Below are positions 29,454-33,797 of a stretch of DNA of 39,031 nt, in pieces. Origin of the DNA: a virus; UHGV virus genome UHGV-0112814; one strand, 5' to 3'. A model generated the notes under the pieces. That model saw nothing but the letters and a program-made list of their open reading frames with translations, was not told the origin of the DNA and did no database searches. Every line of letters begins with the position of its first letter. The first letter of the stretch is position 1. Made by a program: the position numbers and the translations under genes.

Positions 29454-30140
29454 ATGGATAAATACGAACAAAGACGACTAAGGCTGATAGAGATAAGAGA
29501 CCGATTCTGTAATGGAAAGGCCTCAGAGTTGGCTCGTCGAATAGAAAGGGAACCATCATACGTTTCCAGAATGCTGTATCCGGAAGGAAAAAGCGGAAAA
29601 AAACGCATTGCTGACGATATGATGGAACTAATTGAAAAATCTTTTAATCTCCCACGCGGATGGATGGACATGCTTGCAGATAGCAAAGTTGGATCTGCAG
29701 ACCATCTTGAGTTTGCGGGTAACGTTCGTGCGGGTTTTGTTCCGGTAATTGGTGAAGCCGTTTTGGGAGTTGATGGCTCAGTGGATATGATTGAATTCAG
29801 ATCCGGTTGGTTAAGCATCTACAGTGGCGATAAAGATGCTTACGGTCTGAAGGTTAAGGGTGACAGCATGTGGCCAAGGATTCAGTCAGGAGAATATGTT
29901 GTTATTGAACCAAATACGCCAGTACATCCAGGTGATGAAGTCTTTGTAAGGACCAAAGATGGTCATAACATGATAAAGATCATGAACAAAACAAGAGACG
30001 GAGACTATCAGTTTAGTAGTATAAACAGCGATCACCGTCCAATCACTCTTCCTGTTGAAGAAGTTGATAAAATGCATTTTGTTTCAGCTATTGTGAAACA
30101 CACTAGGTACGTAGACCAGGACGATCTGCCAAAATTTTGA
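29454..30140 (+). CDS. cI: CI-type prophage repressor with C-terminal S24 (LexA-like) autopeptidase domain
   Basis: 228 aa; C-terminal GDSMWPRI ... GDEVFVR ... IKI is a LexA/S24 Ser-Lys dyad pattern; divergent from cro. Confidence 0.9.
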   Translation: MDKYEQRRLRLIEIRDRFCNGKASELARRIEREPSYVSRMLYPEGKSGKKRIADDMMELIEKSFNLPRGWMDMLADSKVGSADHLEFAGNVRAGFVPVIGEAVLGVDGSVDMIEFRSGWLSIYSGDKDAYGLKVKGDSMWPRIQSGEYVVIEPNTPVHPGDEVFVRTKDGHNMIKIMNKTRDGDYQFSSINSDHRPITLPVEEVDKMHFVSAIVKHTRYVDQDDLPKF

Positions 30141-30451
30141 GGATAAAGCAGCAAATGTTTATACCAGGTATAGTGGTCGCTGTTGTAATCATCTGCTTCA
30201 TATGGGCAAAGTTATCTCCTGTAAGCTCTAAGCATACAGCTGAACTCATGAAGAAGAAGCATCTTATACATGAGGCAGAAACGATAATTAAGAAGTTCAA
30301 AGGCATGTCATATGACGACATGTCATCAGATCAGATTGCTATGTATAAATGCGCCATTGAGCGTCTTGACCACTTAAACGGACTCAAACCCAAACACACC
30401 CCGGTAGAATCAAAATTGCCGCAATGGCCAAGCAATCCAAATAGCTTCTGA
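30137..30451 (+). CDS. Small membrane-anchored protein co-transcribed with cI (candidate lysogen-expressed exclusion function)
   Basis: 104 aa; N-terminal TM helix MFIPGIVVAVVIICFIWA; start overlaps the cI stop; followed by a strong terminator. Confidence 0.6.
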   Translation: MRIKQQMFIPGIVVAVVIICFIWAKLSPVSSKHTAELMKKKHLIHEAETIIKKFKGMSYDDMSSDQIAMYKCAIERLDHLNGLKPKHTPVESKLPQWPSNPNSF

Positions 30452-30462
30452 CATCTCCTTTC

Positions 30463-30486
30463 AGCCCGCAAAGCGGGCTTTTTTAT
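30463..30486 (+). terminator. Intrinsic terminator ending the cI operon
   Basis: agcccgc-aaa-gcgggct perfect stem followed by ttttttata. Confidence 0.75.
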
Positions 30487-30548: not shown

Positions 30549-30585
30549 TACCTGCAGGTATAGACAACAGTTTTACCTGCAGGTA
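30549..30585. promoter_or_regulatory. oL: two perfect TACCTGCAGGTA operators (30549..30560, 30574..30585) overlapping pL
   Basis: Same 12-bp palindrome as in oR, centre-to-centre spacing 25 bp. Confidence 0.6.
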
Positions 30586-30589
30586 TATT
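30561..30589 (+). promoter_or_regulatory. pL promoter (-35 tagaca, -10 tatatt), predicted +1 near 30597
   Basis: 17-bp spacing; downstream leader atcagcaggacgcac... matches the lambda pL transcript start. Confidence 0.55.
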
Positions 30590-30630
30590 TTAAGCCATCA
30601 GCAGGACGCACTAACCACCATGAAGGTGAT

Positions 30631-30660
30631 GCTCTTAAAAATTAAGCCCTGAAGAAGGGC
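30631..30660 (+). promoter_or_regulatory. nutL (boxA gctcttaaa, boxB gccctgaagaagggc at 30646..30660)
   Basis: gctcttaaaaattaagccctgaagaagggcagca matches lambda nutL. Confidence 0.85.
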
Positions 30661-30858: not shown

Positions 30859-31185
30859 ATGGATGCACAAACACGCCGCCGCGAACGTCGCGCAGAGAAA
30901 CAGGCTCAATGGAAAGCAGCAAATCCCCTGTTGGTTGGGGTAAGCGCAAAACCAGTTAACCGCCCTATTCTCTCGCTGAATCGCAAACCGAAATCACGAG
31001 TAGAAAGCGCACTGAATCCGATAGACCTTACGGTGCTGGCTGAATACCACGAACAGATTGAAAGCAACCTGCAACGTATTGAGCGCAAGAATCAGCGCAC
31101 ATGGTACAGCAAGCCACGCAGTGAAATGGGTGTGACTTGTGTTGGTCGCCATAAAACGAAGGGCAAATCCATCGCATTAATCTGA
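30859..31185 (+). CDS. N: Antiterminator N (lambda N)
   Basis: MDAQTRRRERRAEKQAQWKAANPLLVGVSAKPVNRPILSLNRKPKSRVESALNPIDLTVLAEYH ... is lambda N, including the Arg-rich boxB-binding motif. Confidence 0.95.
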   Translation: MDAQTRRRERRAEKQAQWKAANPLLVGVSAKPVNRPILSLNRKPKSRVESALNPIDLTVLAEYHEQIESNLQRIERKNQRTWYSKPRSEMGVTCVGRHKTKGKSIALI

Positions 31186-32233: not shown

Positions 32234-32683
32234 ATGGAAGAACAAGCAAACAAGATTCTCGTAGAACTACTGCAAAAAGCCAGTAATGGAATAGACGCGG
32301 CTGTTTCATTCAGCCAGGCACAGATTCCTGATGTTGTTCATCAGTTGCTGCTATGGAATATGGTTGACAGTCTGATTAAAACATTAATGGCCATTCTAAC
32401 AATCCCACTGGTTTTCTGGTTTATGAAGAAGCAGTGCCAAAGAGTTGAGACAGGTAAAATCGGTGATGAAGGATATTCATGGGAGAAAGGAAATCCCAAA
32501 TACATGCCGACAATGGTTTGGGATAGCAAAGGTGATATTAATCTTCTTATCATGCCATTGGTTGTAGTTTTGACTCTGTGGGGGATTTTTATTATTGGTG
32601 TAGTAACCAATATGACTTGGTTAAAAATTTGGCTGGCCCCAAAGCTTTACCTTATCGAATATGCAGCATCATTGGTTAAGTAA
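32234..32683 (+). CDS. Two-TM membrane protein, moron-like (candidate superinfection exclusion/abortive infection)
   Basis: 149 aa with two hydrophobic segments (LIKTLMAILTIPLVFWFM; INLLIMPLVVVLTLWGIFIIGVV); preceded by a 139-bp gap with a possible promoter and followed by a terminator. Confidence 0.6.
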   Translation: MEEQANKILVELLQKASNGIDAAVSFSQAQIPDVVHQLLLWNMVDSLIKTLMAILTIPLVFWFMKKQCQRVETGKIGDEGYSWEKGNPKYMPTMVWDSKGDINLLIMPLVVVLTLWGIFIIGVVTNMTWLKIWLAPKLYLIEYAASLVK

Positions 32684-32688
32684 TTTCA

Positions 32689-32712
32689 GGCCGCATAGTC
32701 GGCCTTTATTTT
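32689..32712 (+). terminator. Intrinsic terminator after the membrane-protein moron
   Basis: ggccg-catagt-cggcc stem followed by tttatttt. Confidence 0.5.
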
Positions 32713-32729
32713 GGGCATAAACAACAGAG

Positions 32730-33026
32730 GTGAATATGAAATATACGCCAGGTCCATGGAAGTGGTGGACAAGTAACAGCTTCCTGCGATTAAGCAGCCA
32801 GGCTACAGGTAAAGATGGTGGAGTAATTGACTCTTATGTGATGCGTGATGGTCATCCTTCACTGCGCGTTAGCAAAGAAGATATGGCTCTAATAGCTGCA
32901 GCTCCAGATTTACTCGAAGCTCTGCAAGATTTGCTTATTCGTGTCGCTGATGATGAAGAGTATGGGCCTGAACATGCAATTACTCGGGCTCGCGCAGCAA
33001 TCAGTAAGGCTCTTGGGGAGGAGTGA
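32730..33026 (+). CDS. Hypothetical protein
   Basis: 98-aa ORF; stop overlaps the next start. Confidence 0.5.
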   Translation: MNMKYTPGPWKWWTSNSFLRLSSQATGKDGGVIDSYVMRDGHPSLRVSKEDMALIAAAPDLLEALQDLLIRVADDEEYGPEHAITRARAAISKALGEE

Positions 33027-33280
33027 TGGGTAATTTAGATAACGGTGGTTATGCATTCCCTATTCCGAATGCAGATTTTCAGACGTTTGCACCACACACT
33101 GTTGATGAATATAGGCGCATTCAATCAGGAATGACATTACGTGATTACTTCGCGGCAAAGGCTATGCAAGCAATGATTAGCAATCCATCGATTATCGATA
33201 ATGATTCTGATGGAGCTGTTAATTATGCAGCAAGCGCTGCATATAAGTTTGCAGACGCAATGCTCAAAGCTCGCGAATAA
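33023..33280 (+). CDS. Hypothetical protein
   Basis: 85-aa ORF, translationally coupled to the upstream gene. Confidence 0.5.
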   Translation: MMGNLDNGGYAFPIPNADFQTFAPHTVDEYRRIQSGMTLRDYFAAKAMQAMISNPSIIDNDSDGAVNYAASAAYKFADAMLKARE

Positions 33281-33375
33281 GCACTGTGTATTCATTCCAA
33301 CGAGTGAATACACGGAGCAATGTCGCTCGTAACTAAACAGGAGCCGACTTGTTCTGATTATTGGAAATCTTCTTT

Positions 33376-33401
33376 GCCCTCCAGTGTGAGGGCCTTTTTA
33401 T
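33376..33401 (+). terminator. Intrinsic terminator in the early-left operon, upstream of the cIII-like gene
   Basis: gccctc-cagtgt-gagggc perfect stem followed by ctttttatat. Confidence 0.55.
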
Positions 33402-33465
33402 ATGCATACCAATAACGCTTCACTCGAGGCGTTTTCGTTATGCAATCAAACAGAAGGAGCATCCT

Positions 33466-33636
33466 ATGCAACAGTTCGCTATTGCAGGGGCGGCATCGGT
33501 TCGCCCTTTCAACCCGATTTTATCGGTGCAGCATTCACGAAAAAATATTTTAACCGGAGCAGACTTTAAACAACCTCGCGTTAAGAGCTTGCTGGATCGT
33601 CTTGTTGAGTTTCTGAATCAAAAGGTACAGCCATGA
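33466..33636 (+). CDS. cIII: CIII-like small protein (possible FtsH inhibitor)
   Basis: 56 aa, MQQFAIAGAA ... KSLLDRLVEFLNQ loosely resembles lambda CIII; RBS aaggag. Confidence 0.45.
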   Translation: MQQFAIAGAASVRPFNPILSVQHSRKNILTGADFKQPRVKSLLDRLVEFLNQKVQP

Positions 33637-33797
33637 AAAAACCAACTTACGAGGAACTGGAAGAAGCCCTGAAAGAGCTTAGAAGAATAGCTTTCGCCAG
33701 ACGCACTAACTCTCACAACTGCGGCCCATTTCAGTACTCGGATTTATGCGAGGACATCATTGAGGTAACTCAACTGATTAAGGTCGTTAAGCAATGA
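33633..33797 (+). CDS. Small hypothetical protein (54 aa)
   Basis: Own translation MKKPTYEELEEALKELRRIAFARRTNSHNCGPFQYSDLCEDIIEVTQLIKVVKQ; start overlaps the cIII-like stop. Confidence 0.35.
   Translation: MKKPTYEELEEALKELRRIAFARRTNSHNCGPFQYSDLCEDIIEVTQLIKVVKQ

Follow-up and report, generated by a model that had tools for sequence, protein, structure and literature searches.

The segment at 33281-33465 of the window, by which we mean the whole 39,031-nt stretch of virus genome UHGV-0112814, is very probably a composite leader. It comprises a gene for the small RNA PreS that ends at the terminator tL2a, a second terminator, tL2b, and an upstream hairpin (hairpin 1), all within a pL operon that lacks ea10. 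Judged by its sequence, the leader is the literal homologue of the ral-ea10 and ea10-cIII spacers of phage lambda and no new cIII control element. The terminators tL2a and tL2b and the small RNA PreS (LPR1) are already known, also in the ea10-less arrangement. The residual novelty is modest and consists of a covarying hairpin at the 5' boundary of PreS and of a longer, 'type II' relative of this RNA. For the annotation of the window, a speculative "cIII leader" gives way to three named elements. In addition, the window gains an sRNA gene, PreS, which is unannotated in the phage records inspected and missing from Rfam 15. The elements of the leader and the gene that follows are:

33281-33393, + strand: conserved mosaic block ('bsq4'), hairpin 1 plus PreS through the tL2a stem
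33284-33315, + strand: hairpin 1, a 14-bp stem with a CAAC loop and a perfect 9-bp core (33286-33294 / 33305-33313)
33315-33401, + strand: PreS homologue, made up of a 5' stem-loop, a single-stranded seed and the Rho-independent terminator tL2a
33350-33376, + strand: PreS seed region, with the 18-nt delta-seed at 33350-33367, M1 at 33354-33356 and M2 at 33364-33366
33376-33401, + strand: tL2a, stem 33376-33381 / 33388-33393, then C, U5 (33395-33399) and AU; 3' end and Hfq-type tail of PreS
33404-33443, + strand: tL2b block, core AACGCTTC-ACTC-GAGGCGTT (33414-33433), tail TTCGTTAT, outer stem GCATAC / GTTATGC
33454-33459 and 33466-33636, + strand: Shine-Dalgarno sequence AAGGAG and cIII-family gene (ATG at 33466, stop ending at 33636, 56 aa)

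The earlier note on this DNA described a perfect 9-bp stem with a 10-nt loop at 33286-33313, an intrinsic terminator at 33376-33401 and a cIII-like reading frame 3' of it. All of these are present. The stem is formed by GTGTATTCA (33286-33294) and TGAATACAC (33305-33313), and the terminator, GCCCTC-CAGTGT-GAGGGC (33376-33393) followed by C-TTTTT-AT, matches a terminator scan. The reading frame belongs to the CIII family (phrog_550), with its start at the ATG at 33466 and not at 33467. Besides this ATG, the earlier description lacked a second terminator-like hairpin at 33414-33433 and a stem-loop at ~33315-33354. Folding with RNAfold (ViennaRNA) gives the leader (33281-33466, 186 nt) a free energy of -66 kcal/mol, compared with -41.7 +/- 3.8 kcal/mol in dinucleotide-shuffled sequences (z = -6.4; 0/200 shuffles). 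All z-scores reported here are relative to shuffled sequence, with 200 shuffles for the leader and for hairpin 1.

Most of the leader is found unchanged in lambda. Positions 33281-33393 equal lambda 34045-33933 on the complement strand (113/113 identical), and the whole leader is 100% identical to phage mEpX1 and also occurs in about 368 records of lambdoid phages. In BLAST searches of phage genomes, homology to about 330-370 lambdoid phage records starts abruptly at 33281, immediately behind the stop codon of the preceding, unrelated gene, with downstream end points that vary. The leader sequence of lambda, 434, 933W and many Stx phages is split by ea10 (ssb) into two pieces about 560 bp apart. 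In the window, the ral-ea10 and ea10-cIII spacers of lambda are fused and ea10 is cleanly absent, an arrangement shared with HK620 and mEpX1. Taken as a whole, the window represents a P22-like (Lederbergvirus) podovirus mosaic of E. coli, with kinship to CUS-3, HK620 and Sf101.

PreS (LPR1) was found in lambda as an Hfq-bound RNA by RIL-seq during infection (Silverman, Nashef, Bruner, Noy and Melamed; 10.1101/2024.10.31.621285, preprint) and is reviewed in PMC12197685. According to the preprint, lambda PreS lies between ral and ea10, has tL2a as its 3' end and appears as a band of ~88 nt and a stronger processed band of ~68 nt. It is made in the lytic and not in the lysogenic state, depends on Hfq and pairs with host mRNAs through an unpaired seed. 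PreS opens the ribosome-binding site of dnaN and so activates its translation, and it represses alaS, both proven by compensatory mutations, and deletion of the seed or of the full RNA lowers phage DNA replication and yield in an Hfq-dependent manner. The 88-nt LPR1 begins with GAGCAATGTCGCTCGTAACT and ends with ...CCTCCAGTGTGAGGGCGATTTTTTA (Table S5 of 10.1101/2024.10.31.621285). Its ends were set here by the primers P810/P1103/P1107 and P1104/P1108, and the seed, M1 and M2 sites by P970/P971, P838/P839 and P888/P889, all of that table. The same authors claim that PreS is widespread among lambdoid phages, counting as homologues sequences with at least 92% identity and at most 3 gaps.

The window carries a single copy of PreS. 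Aligned without gaps, it agrees with lambda LPR1 at 85 of 88 positions (96.6%), which is above the 92% of the preprint. The two RNAs are identical (79/79) from +1 through the last nucleotide of the terminator stem; the only differences, at 33394, 33395 and 33400, all fall in the tail after the stem. The 5' part folds into a stem-loop at ~33315-33354 (z = -4.0). The delta-seed region TGTTCTGATTATTGGAAA (33350-33367) and the triplets M1 (CTG) and M2 (GAA), which in lambda pair with dnaN and alaS, respectively (10.1101/2024.10.31.621285), are all identical to lambda. Two colinear blocks of the seed region, TGTTCTGATTA (33350-33360, 11 nt) and AAATCTTCTTTG (33365-33376, 12 nt), are exact Watson-Crick complements of the dnaA-3'/dnaN leader of MG1655; within the Enterobacteriaceae, the sequences they target are conserved (E. 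coli, Shigella, Klebsiella, Enterobacter and others). Thus, the likeness to lambda PreS extends over the sequence, the seed, M1 and M2, the dnaN-complementary blocks, the place in the pL operon downstream of N and the upstream hairpin. The differences are the tail (C-U5-AU) and the neighbours, which are tL2b/cIII at 20 nt and an 85-aa ORF in the window versus ea10 and ral in lambda. In addition, the host genome of the element is a P22-like podovirus mosaic and not lambda. From the 79/79 identity over the functional part, we infer that the window phage would make the PreS RNA and that this RNA would depend on Hfq and regulate dnaN and alaS. A P22-like E. coli phage would then possess the means by which lambda boosts the host sliding clamp, which fits the claim of the preprint that PreS is widespread.

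Other searches bear on this assignment in different ways. At the gathering threshold, Rfam 15 has no match anywhere in the window, and at E <= 10 over 33150-33700 it returns only noise, such as RyhB at 15 bits against a threshold of 55 bits. PreS is not in Rfam 15, and the assignment therefore comes without independent model-based confirmation. The sequence of LPR2, a lambda late-operon RNA proposed as a sponge or partner of PreS, is absent from the window at up to 3 mismatches to the probe sequence. If the interaction of PreS with LPR2 is important in lambda, the window phage lacks an equivalent. A full-length RNAduplex calculation of PreS with the dnaN leader was dropped as evidence; it gave -50 kcal/mol, shuffled sequences reached -48 kcal/mol, and the type II RNA scored even lower. 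Two other sRNA names were rejected for this locus: svsR (PMC12803456), located at the 3' end of cI, and the Pas sRNA, whose preprint names none of ral, ea10 and cIII.

The seed region at 33350-33376 as a whole reads as a nearly continuous antisense of the codons with which host dnaA ends (EDFSNLIRTL). A third block, ATTGGAAA, also pairs with the PreS seed in Klebsiella-type dnaA sequences. This suggests that the seed may have been derived from, or have converged on, the antisense of the end of host dnaA.

The 3' end of PreS, tL2a, has a 6-bp GC stem (-10.7 kcal/mol, z = -3.0) that is identical to lambda 33950-33933. Its tail is C-U5-AU in the window versus GA-U6-A in lambda. With this U-tract being one residue shorter, termination or Hfq binding at tL2a could be weakened. 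The short tail is shared by ea10-less phages: in the window, mEpX1, HK620 and others it reads C/T-U5-AUAU, shorter than the GA-U6 of ea10-containing phages. If transcription continued past tL2a to tL2b, 40 nt on, PreS would have an isoform of ~126 nt. In the window, tL2b follows tL2a at a spacing of 20 nt, just upstream of cIII. Its core hairpin (33414-33433) together with TTCGTT matches the terminator scan and is identical to lambda 33512-33493, and the extended stem at 33404-33443 has ~14 interrupted base pairs (z = -4.75). With its interrupted tail, UUUUCGUU, tL2b is probably a weak terminator.

Both hairpins have been annotated before. In the HK620 record (AF335538) they are the terminators tL2A and tL2B, directly upstream of cIII; the Sf6 record (AF547987) has a terminator with 'homology to phage lambda; tL2A'; and the records of 434 and mEpX1 have a terminator at the same site. 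The hairpins of the window are identical to the tL2 cluster of lambda and stand in the same order and the same N/nutL context. In lambda, 434 and 933W, ea10 separates the two terminators by about 400 bp, whereas in the window they stand back to back, exactly as in the ea10-less HK620 and mEpX1. Sf6 differs in having another gene (gene 33) inserted, so that tL2b falls outside the match. By analogy with older lambda literature and these database annotations, termination at tL2a and tL2b would be expected to occur in vivo.

The operon around the leader is of the lambda type in its control elements:

30561-30589, + strand: pL-like promoter, TAGACA-17-TATATT, from a promoter scan
30630-30638 and 30646-30660, + strand: boxA and boxB of nutL, from alignment with lambda nutL
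30859-31185, + strand: gene N (Pfam N36, E = 1.6e-26)

These lie 2.1-2.7 kb upstream of PreS on the same strand. The boxB of nutL is identical to that of lambda, and boxA has one C->T change. The gene directly upstream of the leader is an unrelated 85-aa ORF, and downstream of it are cIII, small ORFs and the RecT recombinase. With lambda-type pL, nutL and N in the operon, transcription is expected, by analogy, to pass tL2a and tL2b by N-dependent readthrough and so to reach cIII. In this respect the earlier reading of the leader as a cis-acting control site holds in part: the leader is a structured, terminator-bearing portion of an N-antiterminated leftward operon upstream of cIII. The part that does not stand is the analogy with RNase III control of cIII.

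The alternative that survives best, although we regard it as unlikely, is that the leader is a cis-acting control region of cIII, serving as an RNase III processing or attenuation site. The leader adjoins cIII, is strongly structured and has two terminators, and RNase III is known to affect the translation of lambda cIII (PMC5371410). However, the lambda element in question is not found here. Rfam family RF01804 (Lambda_thermo), which concerns expression of the same gene family, maps in lambda to 33418-33476, across the cIII start codon, with 88.5 bits (positive control); in the window, it has no match at the gathering threshold, nor at E <= 10 over 33150-33700. The window cIII allele has another translation-initiation region, which diverges from lambda just after the Shine-Dalgarno sequence, and the segment around the cIII start (33440-33520) has no excess structure (z = 0.15). 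With no RF01804 match and a diverged initiation region that shows no excess structure, the analogy to RNase III control of cIII fails. In addition, the leader lacks the long duplexes typical of RNase III substrates; its longest helices are the 14 bp of hairpin 1 and the ~14 interrupted bp of the extended tL2b stem, shorter than classical E. coli RNase III substrates, although these helices may still be cleaved. The trans function of PreS demonstrated in lambda (10.1101/2024.10.31.621285) also stands against this alternative.

The arrangement of the elements across phages divides the cis-acting question in two. A scan of IMG/VR with the conserved PreS 5' motif gave 120 loci, 102 of them with enough flanking sequence. 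Two separable modules emerge, one comprising hairpin 1, PreS and tL2a as a unit and the other the tL2b block with the cIII start. The distance from PreS +1 to tL2b is ~101-121 nt in 29/102 loci (the ea10-less form; 24 of these have 101-103 nt, like the window), ~500 nt in about 27/102 (the lambda form with ea10 present) and takes other values in about 10/102. No tL2b/cIII block lies within 1.6 kb of PreS in 36/102 loci. Ea10 or other DNA is inserted between the PreS module and tL2b/cIII in about 35 other loci. The PreS module is thus often apart from cIII, and this separability speaks against cis-regulation of cIII by the PreS part.

The tL2b block behaves differently. The block, GCATACCAATAACGCTTCACTCGAGGCGTTTTCGTTATGC, is nearly invariant and always stands directly before the cIII start, whichever of at least five cIII alleles follows, which makes a cis role plausible for this block. 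It makes up a conserved 5' UTR of cIII. Its near-invariance also means that there are no compensatory changes, and covariation therefore speaks neither for nor against a structure. The block is conserved in lambda and in E. coli and Salmonella phages, more tightly than PreS, and a weak terminator alone is no explanation for this.

The cIII reading frame itself matches phrog_550 'CIII' (E = 5.9e-19), has no Pfam match and has weak BLASTP similarity to lambda CIII in the N-terminus and the central helix. In mEpX1 (JQ182727), a 91-aa 'putative cIII protein' is annotated from a TTG inside PreS through both terminators; the equivalent frame in the window is 33361-33636. This is almost certainly a mis-annotated start, as the ATG at 33466 with its good Shine-Dalgarno sequence gives a 56-aa CIII. 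RefSeq names the product 'CIII anti-termination', which is wrong for an FtsH inhibitor.

The free energy of hairpin 1 is -18.8 kcal/mol in RNAfold (z = -7.0; 0/200 shuffles), and its last nucleotide (33315) is the first nucleotide of PreS. Lambda has the same hairpin upstream of PreS, and the primer arm for the full deletion in the preprint stops right after it (Table S5). Among related phages, hairpin 1 occurs in at least four unrelated sequence classes, each a perfect hairpin of 11-14 bp at the same distance from GAGCAAU:

Lambda-type: arms GTGTATTCA/TGAATACAC
Epsilon34-type: arms AATGACCA/TGGTCATT
SEN22-type: arms AATGCGGA/TCCGCATT
Fourth type: arms TATAGCAGA/TCTGCTATG

In a non-redundant alignment of 19 sequences, standard pairs fill 94% of the hairpin 1 cells, compared with 27-51% when the partners are slid by 1-3 columns, and both sides have changed in 8/14 pairs. 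The covariation score is 0.62, against at most 0.15 in the slid controls and 0.19 in shuffles; none of 500 shuffles reaches 0.62. The pairing is kept through full replacement of the sequence, which indicates that hairpin 1 is under selection for RNA structure and not for DNA identity. U-G pairs recur in the stem. On the opposite strand these would be C-A mismatches, and the selected structure is therefore that of the RNA in the pL (+) sense.

Hairpin 1 is not a terminator, since no U-run follows the stem, and its helix of 14 bp is short for E. coli RNase III. In a promoter scan of the + strand, neither hairpin 1 nor the sequence directly before it yielded a sigma-70 promoter that could serve PreS, so the 5' end of PreS more likely arises by processing. 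Hairpin 1 may mark the processing boundary at which PreS is released from the pL transcript, and it may protect the 3' end of the upstream mRNA. We found no nucleotide-resolution 5' end, promoter or RNase for PreS given in the preprint (10.1101/2024.10.31.621285), and a role for the hairpin therefore has to be inferred. A covarying hairpin beside PreS +1 provides a testable handle on the release of this sRNA from the pL transcript, a matter the preprint left open.

The covariation also bears on a second alternative, in which the leader is purely a boundary sequence, a homology patch for lambdoid recombination without any RNA function (the bsq4 model of the HK620/Sf6 genome papers). In the Sf6 record, the 113 nt in question are marked as a misc_feature, 'bsq4; boundary sequence', likewise at a junction of non-homologous modules, and a general boundary-sequence model for lambdoid phages exists (PMC3233612). 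The abrupt start of homology at 33281, the varied downstream ends and the flanking modules, which differ among phages as they do around a boundary sequence, agree with this concept. However, the concept has no RNA function in it, and the block in the window is mostly the PreS gene plus a covarying hairpin. Recombination would not account for the pairing of hairpin 1 that is kept with 8/14 compensatory pairs and strand-specific U-G wobbles, for a terminator stem that in Salmonella phages has changed in sequence and not in structure, or for the reduced phage yield and DNA replication of the seed and full deletions in lambda (10.1101/2024.10.31.621285). As a complete explanation, the boundary sequence is thus very improbable. 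The two views are compatible, as a functional sRNA gene can double as a recombination linker.

At 33275-33285, many phages share a GAATAA that closes upstream genes otherwise unrelated to each other, just ahead of the block (…CGAATAA-GCAC… or GAATAAACACTGCAC). This places the mosaic junction inside the shared stop codon or directly in front of it.

That the functional product is instead a small protein, encoded by the 31-codon ORF at 33320-33415 (MSLVTKQEPTCSDYWKSSLPSSVRAFLYAYQ), can practically be dismissed: the ORF has a GGAG just upstream of its ATG, but this lies only 2 nt before it, the frame runs through tL2a, the ATG becomes ATA in diverged Salmonella-phage versions that keep the RNA features, and the lambda RNA acts by base-pairing, as compensatory mutations demonstrate (10.1101/2024.10.31.621285).

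These diverged versions form the second type of PreS. In the Salmonella P22-like phages epsilon34, SF3, SEN22 and UPF_BP1, the same position upstream of c3/cIII is occupied by a type II PreS of 101-106 nt. In the extracted loci, it is found at:

1201-1305: type II PreS of epsilon34
1201-1307: type II PreS of SEN22
576-680: type II PreS of UPF_BP1
SF3: type II PreS also present

Compared with type I, to which the window and lambda versions belong, the first 19 nt are the same and the flanking hairpin is kept, and the seed region has an insert of 13 nt and several substitutions. The terminator stem differs in sequence (GCCGCUC/GGGCGGC) and keeps its structure. Hybrids of types I and II exist, and the consensus fold of both retains the terminator and two further stems, one GAGC/GCUC and the other with one compensatory pair. 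Type II PreS has no Rfam family. It lies below the identity cut-off of at least 92% used in the preprint and would thus have been missed there (10.1101/2024.10.31.621285).

Taken with the composite leader, these observations allow a joint reading that we put forward as tentative, and as possible rather than probable. Hairpin 1 would be a dedicated, structure-selected signal for the biogenesis of PreS, setting the endonucleolytic cut at its 5' end and capping the upstream mRNA at its 3' end. In phages without ea10, a single transcript would have its branch point at tL2a, where termination yields a lysis-promoting sRNA and N-mediated readthrough a lysogeny-promoting cIII mRNA. This reading also takes the longer type II PreS of Salmonella P22-like phages as a relative not described before.

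The composite leader held above as very probable would itself work as follows. Transcripts from pL, modified by N at nutL, would read through tL2a and tL2b into cIII and the recombination genes downstream. PreS would arise from transcripts that terminate at tL2a, or are shortened to this site, and in which a cut falls directly 3' of hairpin 1. The PreS seed would then pair with the dnaA-3'/dnaN leader and open the dnaN ribosome-binding site, leading to more beta-clamp, and alaS would be repressed; phage DNA replication would be supported, as shown in lambda.

Further observations concern the surroundings of the pL operon. BoxA reads TGCTCTTAA in the window and CGCTCTTAA in lambda, and boxB and N are lambda-type. 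The immunity region is not that of lambda, having repeated TTACCTGCAGGTA operators and an S24 repressor at 29454-30140. Two strong terminator-like hairpins are found on the + strand, one at 30463-30479, just upstream of pL and after ORF 30137-30451, and one at 32688-32705 within the pL operon, between ORFs 32234-32683 and 32730-33026, in a tL1-like position.
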